Assembly: GCA_902593475.1 (NCBI GenBank)
Contig: CACJIM010000004.1
Location: 340-64,339, forward strand
DNA length: 64,000 nt
Source of the DNA: an uncultured Candidatus Actinomarina sp.
GTDB lineage: Bacteria > Actinomycetota > Acidimicrobiia > Actinomarinales > Actinomarinaceae
Direction: 5' to 3'
In this document: piece by piece, positions 49,866 through 57,675 of the stretch
How positions within the stretch are numbered: position 1 is the first letter of the stretch
How the letters are laid out: every line of letters starts with the position of its first letter
Notes under the pieces: model-generated
What the model was told of the DNA's origin: nothing
Databases searched by the model: none
What the model saw: only the letters and a program-made list of their open reading frames with translations
Position numbers and translations under genes: made by a program

Positions 49866-50321
49866 GTGGTTAAAAAAACTTTACTTCTTTTTATATTCTT
49901 AATTTCTTGTACAGGTAGTGAATCTGCAATTGAGGAATCAAAATCTTTAAATTCTGAAGAAGTGCTTAATCAAATATTGGAAAGCTATAAAAACTTTTCA
50001 GACAACCCAGAAGAAGCTGTTGATCTAATTTGGGGCTTCGCACATGAAGATAATAAGGAAATCACGGGACCAAAAGAGAGGTTTGGTCAAATGTTGGTTA
50101 GCGAACCATACGACTCCATTATTGATCTTAAAGAGTACTCATATGAAGTAACGTATGAAAATGAAACAAATGTACATTATGAAGTTAAGGTACTTGCTAA
50201 AACTAATAATTATTTTGTAATTACATGGGTTTTTGAGAAAACGGATTGTCCGGAATTAGAACAGCAGTGTTGGCTAACAATTGCTGTGACTGCACCAGAA
50301 TATTTTCAATCAGGTATTTAA
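49866..50321 (+). CDS. Small lipoprotein of unknown function
   Basis: 151 aa with GTG start, signal peptide and lipobox FLISC. Confidence 0.6.
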   Translation: MVKKTLLLFIFLISCTGSESAIEESKSLNSEEVLNQILESYKNFSDNPEEAVDLIWGFAHEDNKEITGPKERFGQMLVSEPYDSIIDLKEYSYEVTYENETNVHYEVKVLAKTNNYFVITWVFEKTDCPELEQQCWLTIAVTAPEYFQSGI

Positions 50322-50839
50322 TCGTCTAAATTTTCTAAAGGATTTTCTGGCTGGCAAATTTCAAAAGCTTCTTGTACTGCCTCCGAGCTAAAATCTATAT
50401 CTGCATCTCTAAATGCAAAGAACCCAAACTCCCCGGGTTTTGGATCTGGAAAGTCAATTCCTTGGTCTCTCATACACTGCGAAAACTCTAAAGAAGCATC
50501 AACTAAAGCCGCTTCAACTTCTGGATCTAAATCAAATTGCTCTGGGAGAGCATTTCTCAAAATATCTTCACAATTTTCAAAAGCACTCTCAAACTCTTCT
50601 TCATTTTCAATTTCTAAATTATCGAACTGTGGATTTCCATCTATATCAAATTTTGGGTCAGGAAAATTAATACCTTCTTCTCGCATGCATTGAGCAAACT
50701 CGAGGACACCCTCTTCAAAAGTTGTCTCCTCATCAACAACTGTTGTAGCGGTGGTAGATTCAATAGTTACAACTCCTTGGGATTCTTCTCCGCCGATAGT
50801 GCATGCAGTAAATATAGCTACAAAGACTAGGATTTTTAT
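50318..50839 (-). CDS. Acidic two-module Cys-motif lipoprotein, paralogue P1 (start uncertain)
   Basis: Signal and lipobox read KIKILVFVAIFTAC. Two modules are present: EFAQCMREEGINFPDP...FENC and EFSQCMRDQGIDFPDP...FEIC. The only canonical start (ATG 50947) overlaps the permease gene by 112 nt. ATA 50839 and ATC 50833 are the only codons near the signal peptide. Confidence 0.6.
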   Translation of the reverse strand: MKILVFVAIFTACTIGGEESQGVVTIESTTATTVVDEETTFEEGVLEFAQCMREEGINFPDPKFDIDGNPQFDNLEIENEEEFESAFENCEDILRNALPEQFDLDPEVEAALVDASLEFSQCMRDQGIDFPDPKPGEFGFFAFRDADIDFSSEAVQEAFEICQPENPLENLDD

Positions 50840-52023
50840 TTTCGAACTGCCTCTGCTGGTTGAATTTTTGAAGCTTTTATAGCTGGATATACACCAGAAA
50901 TAGCTCCGATTAATAATGCTAAAAGTACTGCTCCAAATATTTGCCATACAGGTATTGAGAATACAATATTTGTGTAATTAGTATAACCCAGGGTAATAGC
51001 TGTTCCGAGAAGCACTCCAACTAAACCCCCTATTCCTGACAAAACAATACTTTCTAATAAAAATTGGTACCTAATTTCTCTTCTAGTAGCACCAATAGAT
51101 CTTCTAACTCCAATTTCCATTCTTCTCTCTAGCACAGACATCACCATGACATTTGCAATAGCGACACCACCAACAAGAAGTGCAACTGAACCAAGCCCTA
51201 AAAGTAGATTAGTAAATGCTTCTTCAGCTGCCTGTTGGGCTTCGAGTGCATCTGATGGACGGGTAACCTCAACTTGATCTGGGTTTTCAGGATTCATTGA
51301 GGGCGCCAGTACTTCGACAACGTCCTCGATAAATGTCGGGTTAGCTCGTAAATAAATTGTTGTTGGCTCTTCATCAATATCAAATAATGTTTTTGCTACA
51401 CCATATCCAATGAACACAGATCTGTCTAAGTCTGGATGAATTTTGAGCTCTTCTAGTATTCCAACTACACCAAACCATTCTTTTTCAATAAGTATCTTTG
51501 TGGGTGTTGATAAGTTGTTAATTCCTAATCGCTGTGCAGTTACGTTACCTAAGACTGTTACTGGAATATCAGAGAGCCCGTCCTCAATAAACCTACCATC
51601 AATTAAATTGCCTCCTATAACATCTAGCAGTTCAGCACTAGTAACAATTGTTGAAATACCACCGCCTTCAAATTCTGAAATAAAATTACTTCTCCTTACC
51701 AGAAGGTCTGTTTGGGTTGTAGAAGTAACTTCTTGAACTGGACCTATCCTTTCAACCATGCCTAAAACTCCTTTTGGGAGTTCTTCCTGGGTTCCAAAAA
51801 AACCAGCCTGGGGTGATGCTTTAACTAAGTTTGTACCTAAAGATTCTAGTGTTGAGAGAAGGTCTGCCCTTCCTGAAGCTGAAATTCCAGATACTGCAAC
51901 AATTGCAGCGATTCCAATACCAATACCAATTGAAGTAAGTGTTGCTCTACCTTTTCTTGCTCTAACACCGTATAAAGCTACAAAAAACAAGTCTTTGATT
52001 TTAAGTCTATTTCTTTTCATCAA
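50836..52023 (-). CDS. MacB/FtsX-type ABC transporter permease
   Basis: 395 aa. One N-terminal TM helix is followed by a large extracytoplasmic domain and three C-terminal TM helices (FtsX topology). Confidence 0.88.
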   Translation of the reverse strand: MMKRNRLKIKDLFFVALYGVRARKGRATLTSIGIGIGIAAIVAVSGISASGRADLLSTLESLGTNLVKASPQAGFFGTQEELPKGVLGMVERIGPVQEVTSTTQTDLLVRRSNFISEFEGGGISTIVTSAELLDVIGGNLIDGRFIEDGLSDIPVTVLGNVTAQRLGINNLSTPTKILIEKEWFGVVGILEELKIHPDLDRSVFIGYGVAKTLFDIDEEPTTIYLRANPTFIEDVVEVLAPSMNPENPDQVEVTRPSDALEAQQAAEEAFTNLLLGLGSVALLVGGVAIANVMVMSVLERRMEIGVRRSIGATRREIRYQFLLESIVLSGIGGLVGVLLGTAITLGYTNYTNIVFSIPVWQIFGAVLLALLIGAISGVYPAIKASKIQPAEAVRK

Positions 52024-52700
52024 TTCACTATTTTTCCATCAACTAGTTCTATAACTTTTTTGAACATACTTGCATGTTCCTGGTTGTGGGTAATCATTAT
52101 CACTGTTTTACCCTGATTGTTTAAGTCTTTCAGAATATTGAGTATGTTGATGCCGGATTCTTTATCTAAATTTCCTGTTGGTTCATCTGCTAGTACGAAT
52201 GCCGGATCTTGCACTAGAGCACGAGCAATTGCGACTCTCTGTTGTTGACCGCCGGACAATTCTTTGGGTAAATGGGTCAACCTGTCACCAAGGCCAACTT
52301 GTTCTAAAACTTCTTTCGCTTTTTCTAATCTCTCTGATCTTGAAATACCTTGGTATAAAAGACCTTCTGCAACATTTTCTTGAGCAGTTAATCCTGGAAG
52401 AAGGAAGAAGCTTTGAAATATGAATCCAATCTTTTCACCTCTAAACTTTGATAGCTCATTGTCTGAAAGTTCTGATACGTCTTTGCCCTCAATTTCTATA
52501 GAGCCATCGGTTATGCTGTCTAATAATCCAATCATATTTAAGAAAGTGGATTTACCACTTCCTGATTGACCGACTATTGAGACAAAATCTCCTTCTTTAA
52601 TTTCAAGTGAGACACCATCTAAAGCTCTTACTGGCGGAGGGCCTTCGTATACTTTGGAGATGTTATTTATAGAGATGACAGTTTTTGTACTGGTTTTCAT
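52020..52700 (-). CDS. ABC transporter ATP-binding protein (MacB/LolD-type)
   Basis: 226 aa with Walker A GQSGSGKST, signature LSGGQQQRVAIARAL and Walker B LADEPTGNLD. Confidence 0.93.
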   Translation of the reverse strand: MKTSTKTVISINNISKVYEGPPPVRALDGVSLEIKEGDFVSIVGQSGSGKSTFLNMIGLLDSITDGSIEIEGKDVSELSDNELSKFRGEKIGFIFQSFFLLPGLTAQENVAEGLLYQGISRSERLEKAKEVLEQVGLGDRLTHLPKELSGGQQQRVAIARALVQDPAFVLADEPTGNLDKESGINILNILKDLNNQGKTVIMITHNQEHASMFKKVIELVDGKIVN

Positions 52701-54283
52701 CTTGGTACAACTACTATTTGACCCTCTGAGATATTTCCTTTTACTTCCACAAAACCGTCAGTAAATACTCCTATTTCAACAGCAACGTAACTTGTGTCAA
52801 TGCCAGACTCTCCTTCAAATGTTCCAGTATCAAGCGCTCCGTCATAAACTTCTAAAGCATATCCTCCTTCTGCTAAAGCAAGGAGGGCGTTGACTGGAAC
52901 ATAAAGAACATTTTCAGAAATCTCTGTTGTAACAAATACTTTTACAGGAGCTTGGTCGTATGCTTCAATCTCTTCTGGGTTAAGAACTTCTAAAGTAACT
53001 TCTATAAATTCTCCAGCTTGAGTTTGTGTTACAACCTGGTCAATAAAGGTAATGACTGTTGGGACTCTTTCATCTGTAGGAAGTTCTATTTCAACACTAT
53101 CACCAAGTGAAACTGTTTCCTGGTCGGTAGCATCAACTTGAAAGACAACTTCAATTCCAATAGAAGAAATGTTGTACAGTGGTGAATTTAGTACAACAGC
53201 AGAACCAACGTCATTAACATAAGAGCCAACAATTATTGGTGTTTTAGATGCATACGCATTTGTTGGACTAAAAGTTTCTGACTTTGAGGCAAGCTCTAGC
53301 TCTTCAAGCTCTTCTTTGGCTTTTGCTAACTCAGCTACTTGATCAACACCTTCGTTATAGCTTTCTAGGGTATCGTCATATGCTTTTTGAGCTGTTTCAA
53401 TAGCCAAAGCTTCTGTTGCATCAATTCCTGACTCTTTGCCTTTTTCTAAATCTTTAATTCTTTTTTGTTTTTCAATTTCTTGCTCTAGGTCTTCAATTTC
53501 AGAGTCTCTGGTGCCATTTGCAATTTTGTCTTTTGTTTCAGGTATTGTATCGTCTTGAAGTAAGGTAATGCTTTGTTCAGCATTTTCAATAGCGGTGTCG
53601 GCTGCTTTCCAAGCTGCACTTTCTTCATTAGCAGCCTCTTTTGCATCATCTAGCTTTTTCTTTTTGTCGTTTACCTGTGCCAATGTGGTTCCGCCATCTG
53701 AAATTGTCTCTTCAATATTTTCGACTTCGGTCTTTTTTAAATTTATAGCAACCTGTTCTGCTGGTGTAATTTCAGATTTTGTATCAATTTTGTAATCAAC
53801 GTAAAGTGCATTAAGCATATTAGAAGTAGTCTCATCAAAGATTTCATCAGGTACAAAGTCTTCTGATGCGTAACCCAAGAACACAAGAGCTTCTTCAAGT
53901 TGTAAAACATCAGGACCAGCATCAGAGTTTAAATCTAAAGTTCTATAAAAGGGCGTCACTCCTTCAACTAAAATTACAGGTTTATTGTCCACGGCAAATA
54001 AGACTTCTCCAAAATTAATAATGGTTCCCTCTTTAGGAACAAAGGTAACAACCCCCGACATTGGTGAGTTGAGCACTTTACTGTCAGTCTGTCTTAAGGT
54101 TCCGTTATACTCTTCTTTCTTTGCTAAGTCACCTTTTTGTATAGCAACAGTGGTAAGTTCTAGGGTTTTGTTGTTTGTAGATGATTCTGTGTTCTGAGTA
54201 CCAAAATAATAACCACCATAACCTAGTGCAATGACTGCAATTAAAATGTACAGATTTTTTAATTTAAATATATTTTTCATCAT
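52697..54283 (-). CDS. Membrane-fusion (HlyD/MacA-like) adaptor with an inserted peptidoglycan-binding-like domain and a long coiled coil
   Basis: 528 aa with an N-terminal TM helix and a lipoyl-like hairpin (SPMSGVVTFVPKEG). A PG-binding-like segment follows (GPDVLQLEEALVFLGYASEDFVPDEIFDETT). Then comes an acidic coiled coil of roughly 170 aa and a C-terminal beta-barrel. Confidence 0.8.
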   Translation of the reverse strand: MMKNIFKLKNLYILIAVIALGYGGYYFGTQNTESSTNNKTLELTTVAIQKGDLAKKEEYNGTLRQTDSKVLNSPMSGVVTFVPKEGTIINFGEVLFAVDNKPVILVEGVTPFYRTLDLNSDAGPDVLQLEEALVFLGYASEDFVPDEIFDETTSNMLNALYVDYKIDTKSEITPAEQVAINLKKTEVENIEETISDGGTTLAQVNDKKKKLDDAKEAANEESAAWKAADTAIENAEQSITLLQDDTIPETKDKIANGTRDSEIEDLEQEIEKQKRIKDLEKGKESGIDATEALAIETAQKAYDDTLESYNEGVDQVAELAKAKEELEELELASKSETFSPTNAYASKTPIIVGSYVNDVGSAVVLNSPLYNISSIGIEVVFQVDATDQETVSLGDSVEIELPTDERVPTVITFIDQVVTQTQAGEFIEVTLEVLNPEEIEAYDQAPVKVFVTTEISENVLYVPVNALLALAEGGYALEVYDGALDTGTFEGESGIDTSYVAVEIGVFTDGFVEVKGNISEGQIVVVPR

Positions 54284-54346
54284 TGTTCCAATTAAAGTAT
54301 TTTATTAAACCTGTGTGTATTCTGAGAAATTTTTTTACTTAGTTTT

Positions 54347-54946
54347 TTATGCATCCCACTCCTCATCTTTTAGCTCTTCTGGTAACTTATCTTCACATGC
54401 CTGCCATGTCTTAACTAAAGGATCGTCTTCTCTAAGCTCCCAGTCTTCATCAATATAAGCGTCTAATCTAACTTCTCTATTGAAATAATCTGGATCTGGT
54501 ACTTTTGGATATCCACTTTCTCTAAAACACTTCGCCATAAACAGTGATCTATCAATTTCTTTCGATACTTGTGCTGGATCTTCAAATTGATTTTCGTCTG
54601 CTACACCCCATAAATTATATTTCAAAGCGCATTCTTCGATTATATCCCATAGTTCCTCGGCCTCTTGTTCAGTTATTGTTTCAAAATATGAAGCAATTGT
54701 GGTGTAGAGATCTAAAAAGTTTTTTGGTTCTTTAAATTTATAACCAGATTCATTAACACACTGAACAAGTACTAAAGGTGCGTCCTCATCTGAGATTTCT
54801 TCTCGTTCATCTGTAAGCTGTACACCAGAAGCAATTGCCTCTTTACCTTTGTCAGTATCCGCAACAGAGACAACAGCTTGCTCATCTTGTTGAAAAAAAG
54901 AGCATGCTGTTAAAAAAATGAGTATTACTGAAGCTTTTTTATACAT
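54347..54946 (-). CDS. Acidic two-module Cys-motif lipoprotein, paralogue P2
   Basis: Start placed at MYKKASVILIFLTAC (ATG 54946); the track start at 55108 overlaps the upstream gene. Modules are VLVQCVNESGYKFKEP...IEECALKYNLW and MAKCFRESGYPKVPDP...WQAC. Confidence 0.7.
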   Translation of the reverse strand: MYKKASVILIFLTACSFFQQDEQAVVSVADTDKGKEAIASGVQLTDEREEISDEDAPLVLVQCVNESGYKFKEPKNFLDLYTTIASYFETITEQEAEELWDIIEECALKYNLWGVADENQFEDPAQVSKEIDRSLFMAKCFRESGYPKVPDPDYFNREVRLDAYIDEDWELREDDPLVKTWQACEDKLPEELKDEEWDA

Positions 54947-54971
54947 AGAAAAATTATAAAGTAACCTAGTC

Positions 54972-55562
54972 TTATCCTCCACCTTGTTGTGGTGGTTCAA
55001 GTCCAAGGTCGTCAAAACACTCCCCAGCTGCTTCCCTAACTTGATCTTCAAGATACTGTCCAGACTGCACAAGGCTAATAAGAATAGATCTAAGAGGTCT
55101 TTCAGCATTCGGATCTTCCACTTCTATCCCTTTTTCCCGTAAGCATTGTGCAAATTCCAACTCAGTGTCCAATGTATCAGCAACTTCTTCAGGATTCTCA
55201 AAGTCTGCTGTGCCACCAAGTGGAATATCGTTTTCGTCAGCACATGTTTGAATTGTCTCAAAAAGTTCTTCTCTACCTTTTTGATCAGAAGCTAAAAATA
55301 CTGGACGTAAAACACTCTGTAAACTCTCATCGTTTTTAGGATCTGAAACATCATATCCATTCTCTCTTAAGCACTTAGCTAGTAAAAGTTGTGCATCTTC
55401 TATTGAAACTACTTCTTCAGCAACTTCCTCTGCAATTGTTGTAACTGTTGTATCACTTGATAAATCTTTTGTAGAAACAACTCCTTGTGATTCATCTGAT
55501 GATGAACAAGCCGAGAAAAGAACAAATAGAAGTAATAAGAAGATATTTAAATATTTTTTCAT
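54972..55562 (-). CDS. Acidic two-module Cys-motif lipoprotein, paralogue P3
   Basis: 196 aa with signal and lipobox LFVLFSAC. Modules are LLAKCLRENGYDVSDP...IQTC and EFAQCLREKGIEVEDP...AGEC. Confidence 0.75.
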   Translation of the reverse strand: MKKYLNIFLLLLFVLFSACSSSDESQGVVSTKDLSSDTTVTTIAEEVAEEVVSIEDAQLLLAKCLRENGYDVSDPKNDESLQSVLRPVFLASDQKGREELFETIQTCADENDIPLGGTADFENPEEVADTLDTELEFAQCLREKGIEVEDPNAERPLRSILISLVQSGQYLEDQVREAAGECFDDLGLEPPQQGGG

Positions 55563-55566
55563 AATT

Positions 55567-56007
55567 TTAATTGTTTACCCTTATTGAAATAAAAAAGAAA
55601 ATTAAAGTCACTAAACCTATTAAAGGGGTAAGTGCTCCTGGAGGAGCTGAGTCAATGATTAAAGACTTGTATTGACCGATTCCTGCTCTGAGTATGTTTT
55701 CTAAAGCAATAATTAGCAACATAAGCGGAATAAGTTCTCTAATTTTTAAAACAATAAGAAGCAAAATGCAAGCCAAAACTAGCTGTGAAAAACCCCACTG
55801 AGCAAATATTGAAACAATGTTGTTTGCAGCTTCCGGTGAATAGCTGCTTAGTGGAATGCCTGCAATAGTTTCGGCTCCACCATCTTCAGCAAATATGTGT
55901 TCAAGGCTTCTAAATAAATTGAACCCAATTAGTAACCAACAATAGTAATAGACAATTTTGTTGCTTGGTATTTTGTTTTCAATTGTTTGGGGTATTAATT
56001 TTTTCAT
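55567..56007 (-). CDS. Small four-TM membrane protein of unknown function
   Basis: 146 aa with four hydrophobic helices. It lies between lipoprotein paralogues P4 and P3. Confidence 0.6.
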   Translation of the reverse strand: MKKLIPQTIENKIPSNKIVYYYCWLLIGFNLFRSLEHIFAEDGGAETIAGIPLSSYSPEAANNIVSIFAQWGFSQLVLACILLLIVLKIRELIPLMLLIIALENILRAGIGQYKSLIIDSAPPGALTPLIGLVTLIFFFISIRVNN

Positions 56008-56061
56008 AAGATGTTTCTATGTTTTTAATTTCTTTATTTTTTTATTATACAAATCTAATAC

Positions 56062-56553
56062 TTATTTTTGCCAACCACATTCTTGTAATAACGGCATAAC
56101 GTCATCTTTGGATTCCTTGAGCCCACTTAAATCAACCTTAGGTTCTTGTTGGTTTGGATCAGGAACATTTAACCCTTTTTCTCTTAGGCATTTAGCTAAT
56201 TCAAGATTTTCATCATAAATTTTGGCAAGCTCTTCAGGATTCAATGAAGATGTTTCTGACCAGAGATTATATTTACTTATGCAGTAATCGACATCTTCTC
56301 TTAGTTGCAGCTGTTCATCTTTGCTATTGCTTAACTGACTAATTGTTGTTTTTAAATCTTCAATATCAAACGGTGTTGCTATGTTATATCCCATTTCTTC
56401 GTTTAAGCATTGTGTTAAAACAATTGGATAGTCCTCTTCCGCTATAACCGAAGTGGTGGTTGTGTCATTTGATAAAGAGGCTACTCCGTCATCGTTAGAA
56501 GTTGAACATAAATTAAAGAGAAGAGTAAAAATTATTAAATATATTTTTTTCAA
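56062..56553 (-). CDS. Acidic two-module Cys-motif lipoprotein, paralogue P4
   Basis: Start placed at TTG 56553, 9 nt after GAGGAA, giving MKKIYLIIFTLLFNLC. Modules are VLTQCLNEEMGYNIATP...DYCISKYNLW and ELAKCLREKGLNVPDP...LQEC. The track start at 56637 overlaps the upstream gene. Confidence 0.7.
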   Translation of the reverse strand: MKKIYLIIFTLLFNLCSTSNDDGVASLSNDTTTTSVIAEEDYPIVLTQCLNEEMGYNIATPFDIEDLKTTISQLSNSKDEQLQLREDVDYCISKYNLWSETSSLNPEELAKIYDENLELAKCLREKGLNVPDPNQQEPKVDLSGLKESKDDVMPLLQECGWQK

Positions 56554-56555
56554 TT

Positions 56556-57647
56556 TTATTTGTTCCTCAAACCAAACAAAGGCCTTAATGACTTGATGTT
56601 TTTTATGGCGTGATAAATCGTTAAAGAAAAAAAGCAAATCAAGAACAGAGCAATTGGGAATTTAATGATTGGATGGATATTTATACCAGCAAAAAAATAC
56701 ATTACTGCCATTTGTACTGGTAAGTGAACGATGTAAACAGGATATACAGCTGTTTTGTAATAGGTAAGCTGTGGTGAGTCTTTGTTTAAATACACTGCAG
56801 CAAGGCCTAACAGCGCAAAAATAAAATTAAAGGATTCAAAAGCTATGAGCCTATTGTCCAAGGCATAGTCTTCTATAAAATTGTTAAAAAGTCTATAAAA
56901 ATATGATGTCATACCTAAAGCTAGGTGTAATCGCCAGTTCTTTTTATTTGATTCCCAAAAGGCATCACCTTGAGAAGTAAGAATTATACCTATAGCAAAC
57001 CATATGAGGCCAAGAATAAAACCATGCTCCGTAAGAGCGTAAGTAGTGTAATAATCTCCGTATGTTTCTGTTTTAAACCTAATTGAATTAAGCAGATGTC
57101 CCTCAGCTATTATGGGTATTGCAAATATAAATATTCCTCCCGGTCTTTTGAGCAATAAAGAAATAAAATTTTCTTTTGATATAAAATTCAAAATCGGAAC
57201 AAAAAGCCAACAGTAGATAAAAATATTTATTAAAAACCACAAGTGTAATCCCTGATATTGGAAGGAAAATAAGGCTGCTTCATTTATCTCATCTAAGAAC
57301 CAGTAATCATAATATTTGCCCACAATAAAAACCGAGGAAGTTGAAAATACAAGAGTTCCAAACAACCACGGAAGGCCAAGAACTTTTGCTCTCTCTTTAA
57401 ATATTTGCATCTTAGTTCTTTTTCTAAATGAAAGTCTTAAAGCAACCCCCGCAATCAAGAAAACAAGCGGGATTCTCCAGCTATTCATAAGGTTTAGTAG
57501 TGGCCATATACCCTCTACTACTCTTTTGTTCTGAATGAAAAGGGTTTGTCTAGCAAGAGACGTGAATGAGACACCAAGATGATAAAAAATAAGAAGAAAC
57601 ATTGCTATAGATCGCAACGCGTCAATATCATATCTTCTTTGATTCAT
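56556..57647 (-). CDS. Acyltransferase family 3 (OafA/OpgC-like) membrane protein
   Basis: 363 aa with about 10 TM helices. The N-terminal YDIDALRSIAMFLLIFYHL motif is typical of acyltransferase_3. Confidence 0.8.
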   Translation of the reverse strand: MNQRRYDIDALRSIAMFLLIFYHLGVSFTSLARQTLFIQNKRVVEGIWPLLNLMNSWRIPLVFLIAGVALRLSFRKRTKMQIFKERAKVLGLPWLFGTLVFSTSSVFIVGKYYDYWFLDEINEAALFSFQYQGLHLWFLINIFIYCWLFVPILNFISKENFISLLLKRPGGIFIFAIPIIAEGHLLNSIRFKTETYGDYYTTYALTEHGFILGLIWFAIGIILTSQGDAFWESNKKNWRLHLALGMTSYFYRLFNNFIEDYALDNRLIAFESFNFIFALLGLAAVYLNKDSPQLTYYKTAVYPVYIVHLPVQMAVMYFFAGINIHPIIKFPIALFLICFFSLTIYHAIKNIKSLRPLFGLRNK

Positions 57648-57675
57648 ATGAATAATGTTAGTGCGTACGTTTTGA

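Follow-up and report, generated by a model that had tools for sequence, protein, structure and literature searches.

Why should a single export pump be accompanied by four copies of one secreted lipoprotein family, and what would those lipoproteins do? The question is raised by a 64-kb stretch of DNA (here called the window, to which coordinates refer unless another locus is named; G+C ~35%) from an uncultured Candidatus Actinomarina sp. (contig CACJIM010000004.1), in which nine open reading frames (ORFs) at 50318-57647, each on the minus strand, encode four lipoproteins (P1-P4), the adaptor, ATPase and permease of an ATP-binding cassette (ABC) exporter, a protein with four transmembrane (TM) helices and an acyltransferase-3. 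The few close homologues of its proteins with a source name are labelled Candidatus Actinomarina, Actinomarinales or Acidimicrobiaceae, in line with a marine member of the Acidimicrobiia with a small genome. A first-pass annotation had described nine consecutive reverse-strand genes here, and position and strand were confirmed for nine of the nine ORFs. Sequence comparison across genomes indicates that the core of the locus, consisting of P, adaptor, ATPase and permease, is a widespread conserved four-gene module of monoderm bacteria and not a local curiosity.

The evidence comes from two scans. In the P-first scan, an alignment of six high-GC members of the P family was run against one genome per species (GTDB); in the adaptor-first scan, an alignment of canonical adaptors, independent of P, was run against metagenome contigs. 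Each yielded 80 loci, being the best 80 of more than 560 matches; six-frame ORFs of the fetched loci were searched with the window's own proteins, and the synteny counts cover only loci with enough flanking sequence. The P-first loci came from Acidimicrobiia, Solirubrobacterales/Thermoleophilaceae, Nitriliruptorales, Nocardioides, Amycolatopsis, Planotetraspora, Actinocrispum and Chloroflexota (Limnocylindrales and Chloroflexia). Downstream of P, adjacent to it and on the same strand, were found the adaptor (in 75 of 77 loci), the ATPase (71 of 74) and the permease (72 of 72). In the opposite direction, P stood directly upstream of the adaptor in all 60 metagenome loci with at least 700 nt of upstream sequence, and in 66 of 67 when the limit was lowered to 300 nt. 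The check that the first-pass annotation had proposed for its idea, namely whether the P family is syntenic with MacB-like pumps, was thus strongly positive both ways. Moreover, the start of the adaptor gene overlaps the stop of P by 4 nt in most loci.

In 67 of 71 loci, the 2.8 kb upstream of P encode a response regulator and a sensor kinase, divergently in 48 and co-directionally in 19. The regulator is of the OmpR type, and the extracytoplasmic loop of the kinase, as estimated by a crude hydropathy method, has a median length of 84 amino acids (aa) and is mostly ~50-150 aa long. In its general form, the module has one P gene, placed immediately ahead of the adaptor, and in most cases a two-component system; the picture of a pump flanked on both sides by multiple P copies holds in Actinomarina and does not hold as the general form. 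No response regulator or kinase was found anywhere in the 64-kb window.

The module is also carried by linear plasmids of Streptomyces (45 plasmid records), where its genes are labelled by NCBI as hypothetical protein, peptidoglycan-binding protein, ABC transporter ATP-binding protein and ABC transporter permease, and where the 'hypothetical proteins' are members of the P family (1e-25 to 3e-31). The chromosomes of Embleya and Nonomuraea gerenzanensis have five module places each. In one Chloroflexia locus, the adaptor is preceded by a tandem pair of P genes, and two metagenome loci have two adaptor and two P matches each. Apparent fusions of P and adaptor in two long-read assemblies, with both in one frame (L001:10001-11658 and L013:9749-11671), were rejected: they probably reflect a sequencing indel, many genes there being broken, and in the case of P0390, where a fusion was first suspected, the contig is full of fragmented genes and the locus does not translate to the query. 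Such a fusion is implausible, because a lipoprotein domain ahead of the adaptor's single signal-anchor helix would place the adaptor in the cytoplasm; from these loci, the adjacency of P and adaptor alone was taken.

In the window, the module and its further P genes are laid out as follows.

50318-50947, minus strand: P1, predicted lipoprotein, the closest paralogue to the canonical family (ORF from an ATG 112 nt inside the permease gene)
50836-52023, minus strand: MacB-type permease, 395 aa (FtsX, 2.2e-21; MacB_PCD, 1.9e-14)
52020-52700, minus strand: ABC ATPase of the MacB/LolD/FtsE type (ABC_tran, E 2.9e-35)
52697-54283, minus strand: membrane-anchored periplasmic-adaptor-like protein, 528 aa (aligned end to end with the ~350-aa adaptors of 39 other loci)
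53159-53761, minus strand: within the adaptor (residues ~175-375), predicted acidic coiled coil of ~195 aa, an insertion that each of the 39 other aligned adaptors lacks
53768-53932, minus strand: within the adaptor (residues ~118-172), degenerate PG_binding_1-like segment (E 0.009; 16.6 bits against a cut-off of 23)
54347-54946, minus strand: P2, predicted lipoprotein, in the canonical place directly upstream of the adaptor, its first motif diverged (CVNESG...KEP)
54972-55562, minus strand: P3, predicted lipoprotein (2160 homologues, all unnamed; mean model confidence 85, see below)
56062-56553, minus strand: P4, predicted lipoprotein (TTG start 2 nt past the acyltransferase stop; lipobox FNLC)

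P3 and P2 are separated by 25 nt (P2 starting at ATG 54946), and P2 and the adaptor by 63 nt. Of the two 4-nt overlaps described earlier, that between adaptor and ATPase stands (ATGA), and that between ATPase and permease stands with TTGA at the junction, shrinking to only 1 nt if ATG 52020 is used as the start at this boundary. The P1 ORF overlaps the 3′ end of the permease gene, in keeping with the first description of P1 as abutting or overlapping the permease stop.

A profile of P1-P4 recovered 3145 clusters (at the 50% identity level; E up to 0.001). Those sampled are ~200 aa long, stem from high-G+C organisms, share the consensus F-A-x-C-M-R-E-H-G-I-D-M-P-D-P and in most cases have a lipobox; among ten clusters looked up, the ones named by their source were called 'hypothetical protein', bar one stray SecD label. 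In the 129 P proteins of the fetched loci, the lipobox Cys is conserved at 97% and four other Cys at 95-98%. The motif C-M-R-x-x-G-x-D-M-P-D-P is present twice per canonical protein, and in its fuller form, C-M-R-[DE]-H-G-x-D-M-P-D-P, conservation is 96-98% for Met, 77% for His and 76-78% for the second Met. A 'VAS' motif ~10 residues past the lipid-modified Cys is 77-93% conserved within an otherwise variable linker. Two proteins of the same module (P0289 and P0329) have no lipobox and would be either TM-anchored or cleaved and secreted.

That the lipoproteins might belong to a characterised family, which would have undercut the idea of a new module, is not borne out. The 13 diverse members searched gave no Pfam or NCBIfam match better than E 0.001 and none near cut-off, PADLOC gave no match for P, a P sequence profile matched PDB chains by the signal peptide only, and Foldseek of the P model against the PDB returned a best E of 0.5 with a TM-score of 0.24 or lower. 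The AlphaFold2 (AF2) model of P3, built on an 80-sequence alignment, has a mean predicted local distance difference test score (pLDDT) of 85, with a core above 93, and P is confidently predicted to fold as two three-helix repeats behind a disordered tether of ~35 residues. The four invariant Cys of this extracytoplasmic protein most likely form structural disulfides. Kinship with CHCH/Cx9C/COX17 proteins was considered and set aside (E 0.05-0.2, not significant), these matches being at most compatible with disulfide-pinned helix-loop-helix units. Lipoproteins of the MibQ/PspQ type, from lantibiotic clusters, likewise adjoin ABC pairs in actinomycetes.

The four copies in the window are paralogues with 24-40% mutual identity, an invariant lipobox Cys and four further Cys common to all, and the P profile finds exactly these four in the 64 kb; the view of P1-P4 as one family is upheld. 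All are predicted lipoproteins, each with a signal peptide ending in a lipobox that contains the invariant Cys (FTAC in P1, LTAC in P2, FSAC in P3 and the atypical FNLC in P4). Each mature protein is an internal duplication, in which a unit of C-[ML]-R-E-x-G-x-x-x-x-D-P, ~40 residues and a second Cys occurs twice. Against the profile of the 129 canonical proteins, P1 scores 137 bits, P3 91, P2 52 and P4 48, and P1 keeps C-M-R in both repeats. The His and the second Met of the canonical motif are gone from all four paralogues and the first Met from three, and the mature proteins carry an acidic excess of 18-39 residues. In comparisons with relatives, the ratio of non-synonymous to synonymous substitution rates (dN/dS) of P1-P4 is 0.02-0.22, pointing to purifying selection. 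P2 is the most diverged of the paralogues in motif 1, yet the most conserved among Actinomarina strains (95% identity in all comparisons; dN/dS 0.03-0.07), while P4 is 91% identical to a 163-aa gene of the relative L086 (dN/dS 0.12-0.19).

How P1 is started is a question of its own. Its lipobox Cys codon lies at 50801-50803 and its mature part at 50321-50803, and neither ATG, GTG nor TTG occurs between the permease stop and that Cys in the window or in four of five distinct Actinomarina relatives; the exception (L085) has two TTGs 4-5 codons ahead of the Cys, too near for a signal peptide. At the 5′ end of P1, a conserved codon, ATA or GTA, shares bases with the permease stop (ATAA/GTAA/GTAG). 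Upstream, the frame is open for 56-58 codons in the window and the five distinct relatives and includes a conserved ATG that lies 112 nt within the permease gene; when the permease tail is recoded synonymously, the P1 frame stays open in only 6.6% of cases. Because no canonical start lies by the signal peptide while the upstream frame stays open, P1 would have either a 36-aa N-terminal extension in a long gene overlap (50836-50947) or a near-cognate start codon. Public gene calls shorten P1 to 122-123 aa.

The 528-aa protein, searched alone, has no Pfam, NCBIfam or PDB-sequence match (HlyD_2 reaches just E 0.3). At the level of its family, it is predicted to be a periplasmic adaptor with barrel-sandwich (lipoyl), beta-barrel and membrane-proximal domains. 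Of 40 aligned adaptors, 39 have PG_binding_1 by Pfam, 12 have HlyD_3 and 3 have HlyD_D23, and none has a hydrolase or LytM-like domain. The profile of these 40 matches the MexJ adaptor (1.2e-8) over positions 186-360, the C-terminal half, and its middle part matches many PG_binding_1 proteins; in addition, the adaptor of a relative has a weak YknX_C match. PG_binding_1 is placed between the two halves of the lipoyl-like region, which is the site of the alpha-hairpin in classical adaptors, and the canonical family therefore has no alpha-helical hairpin there. In the window adaptor, the same site holds the degenerate segment, which matches the clear PG_binding_1 domains of other members position by position in the alignment, and the helical insertion of ~195 aa, with 45 acidic and 22 basic residues and an isoelectric point of 4.3; both the peptidoglycan-binding-like segment and the long acidic coiled coil reported at first were thus recovered. 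Long helices at residues 174-334 are the only confident part of its AF2 model. The length of the adaptor varies from 514 to 574 aa among Actinomarina homologues, against ~350 aa for the canonical form.

The pump itself is assigned by domain content to the MacB (type VII) ABC superfamily, as the first-pass annotation had it. The permease has MacB_PCD at residues 28-230 and FtsX at 278-389, both above gathering scores, in the layout of a periplasmic core domain between TM1 and TM2 followed by a C-terminal FtsX three-helix bundle, with four TM helices in total. The translated ATPase, of the MacB/LolD/FtsE clade, shows Walker A (GQSGSGKST), signature (LSGGQQQR) and Walker B (LADEPT) motifs. Its best NCBIfam matches are to DarD (2.7e-70), MacB (4.3e-69) and LolD (5.5e-68), with FtsE also matched, at 217-236 bits and all below the equivalog cut-offs; because none of these is reached, the ATPase is not taken as the orthologue of any named one. 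The permease likewise falls far below cut-off throughout against the NCBIfam models of MacB, ADOP, LolCE and FtsX: the MacB model gives 84 bits for the permease and 233 for the ATPase against a cut-off of 966, the Lol models give the permease 19-39 bits against 362-540 (lolCE 39 against 362, LolE 27 against 439, LolC 25 against 473), and the FtsX models 29-35 against 225-255. In the PADLOC defence-system library, the sole match was the generic LolE-TM on the permease.

Among described systems, YknWXYZ of Bacillus, a four-component system that protects against the SDP peptide, resembles the module in its monoderm host, the order of adaptor, ATPase and permease, a fourth component just upstream and a peptidoglycan-associated adaptor (PMC8277102, PMC5985334). 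However, YknW is a Yip1-family four-TM protein, whereas the fourth component of the module is the unrelated lipoprotein P; moreover, the module adaptor has PG_binding_1 in the place of the hairpin, and a two-component system is usually attached. The four-TM protein of the window is not a YknW either, as no family could be assigned to it and close relatives lack it. MacAB-TolC and pneumococcal Spr0693-0695 share with the module a permease of MacB_PCD and FtsX, a LolD/MacB-type ATPase and an adaptor with barrel and membrane-proximal regions, and mechanotransmission on extracytoplasmic substrates is the natural model (PMC5985334); the module differs in having separate ATPase and permease genes, no outer-membrane duct, PG_binding_1 for the hairpin and an obligatory lipoprotein partner gene. 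BceRS-BceAB of Firmicutes, in which a two-component system is locked to a transporter of the MacB superfamily and several paralogous modules occur per large genome, makes a role in sensing or removing envelope-active compounds plausible (PMC5985334), but the module permease has 395 aa and four TM helices rather than ten, an adaptor and a lipoprotein are present, and the kinases have sizeable extracytoplasmic loops and are not of the intramembrane-sensing kind. CusRS-CusCFBA also combines a divergent two-component system, a small extracytoplasmic protein, an adaptor and a pump, yet the pump of the module is a MacB-type ABC transporter and not of the resistance-nodulation-division (RND) type, P is unrelated to CusF and there is no outer-membrane factor. 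LolCDE has the MacB-type fold and genetic or functional involvement of lipoproteins (PMC5985334), whereas the module has a single permease gene, an adaptor and a monoderm host, with no LolA or LolB. As for FtsEX, its FtsX models are far below cut-off, and the adaptor family has no hydrolase or activator domain.

As the scores of all curated models are far under their cut-offs and the hallmarks of these systems are not found, the module is judged from its sequences not to be an orthologue of MacB, LolCDE, FtsEX, DevCA or BceAB; in its working, it is likened to a Gram-positive pump of the MacAB/YknWXYZ type. What is new is the combination of an adaptor with PG_binding_1 for a hairpin, an obligatory lipoprotein of an undescribed family without a known fold relative and, usually, a dedicated two-component system. 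No description of the module was found in open-access papers and preprints, and one may exist elsewhere; for these sources, the earlier statement that no module of such architecture had been described still stands, and P has no Pfam or NCBIfam model. Pumps of the MacB type that have an adaptor yet no outer membrane to reach are poorly understood, and reviews have asked what purpose an adaptor serves where an outer membrane is absent (PMC5985334). The module offers a concrete and testable answer, namely an adaptor built for wall binding that is, in the loci sampled, almost always paired with a specific lipoprotein. The P family spans Actinomycetota and Chloroflexota, has multiple copies in antibiotic-producing actinomycetes, is found on linear plasmids of Streptomyces and usually comes with a two-component system of its own, a pattern expected of inducible resistance or immunity modules. 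Once the substrate and the role of P are defined, a component class would be added to the type VII ABC systems, and unrecognised resistance determinants of actinomycetes could be exposed.

What, then, does P do? The reading in which we place about as much belief as doubt is that P is the dedicated, membrane-tethered extracytoplasmic partner of a wall-anchored, MacB-type detoxifying exporter; among the roles suggested at first, namely cargo, substrate-presenting partner and stress component, that of partner is moderately favoured. We infer the partner role from the co-occurrence of P and pump in both directions, the translational coupling of P to the adaptor, the tether of P, the wall-binding domain of the adaptor, the attached two-component system and the retention of P. 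P is grouped with the pump and not with the kinase because the window and its relatives L082-L085 keep four P genes and the pump with no two-component system at the locus. Gram-positive MacB-type pumps with an adaptor and a fourth membrane component (YknWXYZ, Sp0785-0787/Spr0693-0695) guard against membrane-active peptides, purified YknX binds peptidoglycan, and such adaptors are thought to form channels across the membrane-wall zone (PMC8277102, PMC5985334).

In the proposed mechanism, the ATPase/permease dimer would act by MacB-like mechanotransmission, and the adaptor would form a conduit from the membrane surface into the wall, fixed there by its peptidoglycan-binding domain and, in Actinomarina, lengthened by the coiled coil. 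P, held at the outer leaflet by its lipid anchor, would most likely capture or present the substrate or gate the adaptor. The pump would remove a compound that acts on membrane or wall from the outer leaflet or the wall zone and expel it through or past the wall, and the OmpR-type regulator and the sensor kinase with its extracytoplasmic loop would presumably induce the module. A cationic substrate is a reasonable guess from the acidity of the P proteins, by what is a weak argument.

Several points weigh against P as the partner of such an exporter. In the window, P2 and the adaptor are spaced by the 63 nt given above with no start/stop coupling, and P1, the most canonical copy, has no canonical start codon beside its signal peptide. 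The AF2 model of the adaptor (25 sequences, mostly above 80% identity) reaches a pLDDT of 49 and a predicted TM-score (pTM) of 0.24, where a fold compatible with a hexameric channel would be wanted. The kinases and regulators are all below cut-off in NCBIfam, with top matches to heavy-metal, MtrB, VanS-O and RstB models in different loci. Since each scan took the best 80 of more than 560 matches, P relatives of weaker match outside a pump context would go unseen. The acidity of P may in part mirror general proteome composition, and three points are inferred: that P associates physically with the pump, that the system exports instead of signalling, and what kind of substrate it handles. A bolder form of the partner reading, tentative and on balance doubtful, would add P to the monoderm MacB-type pumps as an obligatory fourth subunit of a new class: a lipid-tethered, disulfide-stapled helical-repeat receptor on the export side, without a known fold relative, that binds substrate at the membrane surface and hands it to the extracytoplasmic domain of the permease or to the wall-anchored adaptor, with the four diverged paralogues of the streamlined Actinomarina genome as interchangeable specificity modules for one motor. 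P would then mirror the solute-binding proteins of ABC importers.

Other roles for P, or for the whole module, are open to weighing on the same evidence. P could be cargo, extracted from the outer leaflet by the pump in the manner of LolCDE and passed via the adaptor to the wall or released from the cell. The MacB family does include the lipoprotein extractor LolCDE (PMC5985334), several P paralogues surround one pump, and beside the conserved lipobox the 'VAS' motif ~10 residues past the Cys is a segment that an extractor could grip. This is nevertheless unlikely: the hosts are monoderm, so that an outer-membrane target is absent, the loci contain no LolA-like or LolB-like gene, the LolC/LolE models reach only the 19-39 bits given above against cut-offs of 362-540, the small all-helical P domain is without evident function away from the pump, and 1:1 pairing with a 4-nt coupling of P to adaptor is more typical of complex subunits than of substrates. 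Decidedly unlikely, too, is metal detoxification of the Cu/Ag type, in which the layout of CusRS-CusCFBA would be matched by the divergent OmpR-type two-component system, the small extracytoplasmic protein, the adaptor and the pump, with P as a CusF-like metallochaperone feeding a MacB-type rather than an RND pump. The well-conserved Met, His and second Met of the twice-repeated canonical motif (96-98%, 77% and 76-78%) and the strong acidity of P would suit a metal, and the best NCBIfam matches of three of four kinases (from high-GC loci) and one of four regulators are heavy-metal subfamilies. Those matches, however, fall well short of cut-off (189 bits against 292 in one case) and are generic for the kinase class; the loss of the His and second Met in all four window paralogues, and of the first Met in three, tells against metal at least in this organism; and the four invariant Cys are most likely tied up in structural disulfides. 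Moreover, no MacB-type metal exporter is established, the heavy-metal link of YbbAP being called poorly understood (PMC8277102).

Two further explanations would take P or the module away from export. Kinase-associated lipoproteins such as CseA and LpqB are found in Actinobacteria, and P might similarly be an accessory of the adjacent sensor kinase, as a co-sensor or modulator and not a pump subunit, given that a two-component system adjoins in 67 of 71 loci and that kinase loops of ~50-150 aa could bind a partner. Yet the 4-nt overlap joins P to the adaptor and not to the kinase, P sits in the pump operon where the arrangement is divergent, and the window and L082-L085, with no two-component system, have kept the pump and four P genes under purifying selection, all of which makes this role highly unlikely. 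The remaining explanation, the least probable of those weighed here, is that nothing is transported and that, as in FtsEX, ATP-driven movement switches a wall-bound adaptor and P so as to control a cell-wall process. FtsEX does have the MacB architecture and works through coiled-coil partners (PMC5985334), the adaptor is predicted to bind peptidoglycan, and the window adaptor has a long coiled coil; but the canonical adaptor has no coiled coil, hydrolase or activator domain, its adaptor-type barrel and membrane-proximal regions match MexJ, HlyD_3 and YknX_C, the periplasmic domain of the permease matches MacB_PCD, and the FtsX models give the 29-35 bits already mentioned against 225-255.

Two genes of the window were found to vary among close relatives and do not belong to the core.

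55567-56007, minus strand: protein with four TM helices, 146 aa, without a family; strain-variable
56556-57647, minus strand: acyltransferase-3 family membrane protein (Acyl_transf_3, 5.7e-14; MdoC-like, 2.6e-16); strain-variable

The acyltransferase-3 and P4 genes are 2 nt apart (P4 starting at TTG 56553), P4 and the four-TM gene 54 nt, and the four-TM gene and P3 4 nt. L082-L085, whose P3 is 90% identical, are collinear with the window bar two clean gaps, at 56558-57675 (acyltransferase-3) and 55565-55997 (four-TM protein). The four-TM gene is present in L086-L090, and the acyltransferase is present in L086/L087 and absent from L088-L090. As each is a clean insertion or deletion against close relatives, both genes are regarded as accessory insertions, and their earlier inclusion in a conserved unit had to be abandoned. 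Every relative has all four P genes as well as adaptor, ATPase and permease, so that the unit conserved in Actinomarina runs P4, P3, P2, adaptor, ATPase, permease, P1. Nor are nine genes a natural unit by strand, because the same-strand run goes on upstream through a thioesterase, a phosphofructokinase (PFK), DUF2090 and a binding protein; the genes of the 'nine-gene' cluster are there as described, and nine as a boundary is not. A promoter and terminator scan returned sites no more numerous than in shuffled sequence.

The four-TM protein has no family in Pfam (E up to 10, noise aside), NCBIfam or PADLOC, and an exact look-up of the window's copy gave no match. The best 120 of its 315 homologues are all 146 aa long and 77-96% identical, two of them being named and both from Actinomarina/Actinomarinales; judged from these 120, the family appears confined to close Actinomarina relatives (dN/dS 0.14-0.17).

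At the same site, L086-L090 also carry a divergent pair of kinase and regulator, a helical secreted protein of 159-191 aa and a membrane protein of 546 aa, and some of them a small membrane protein and an HTH_3 regulator. The site is a hotspot of gene-content variation among otherwise collinear Actinomarina genomes. Kinship within it is mosaic, with P1, ATPase and permease of the window nearest to L086 (96-98% aa identity) and its adaptor and P3 nearest to L082 (94% and 90%, respectively); because the nearest relative changes along the locus, recombination within it is suggested. The window is a derived form of the module, in which the two-component system is absent, P is expanded to four diverged copies, the adaptor is extended by a coiled coil and the canonical P1 lies downstream of the permease. 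Retention of four P copies at a variable site, in the very small genome of this abundant marine lineage, suggests that selection at the cell surface is strong and strain-specific.

Some minor features of the locus and its relatives were noted in addition. The 546-aa protein of L086 (L086:9047-10687) starts with a multi-TM region similar by eye to the window's four-TM protein (W-x-[IL]-F-x-[AS]-L-x-H), and a helical, His/Lys-tailed secreted protein (L086:7372-7947) adjoins the response regulator; neither has a Pfam family, bar a sub-threshold SHOCT-like match. Next to P1, a convergent 151-aa ORF with a lipoprotein-like signal peptide (LISC) occupies 49866-50321 on the plus strand and overlaps the stop-codon end of P1 by 4 nt. 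Neither Pfam nor NCBIfam has a family for it, and the DNA over it aligns with the relatives L082 and L085, which have a gene of 154-155 aa there. In the relatives, the cluster lies ~4-8 kb from dnaN, gyrB and gyrA (L082:1-5706), which would place it near the presumed replication origin.

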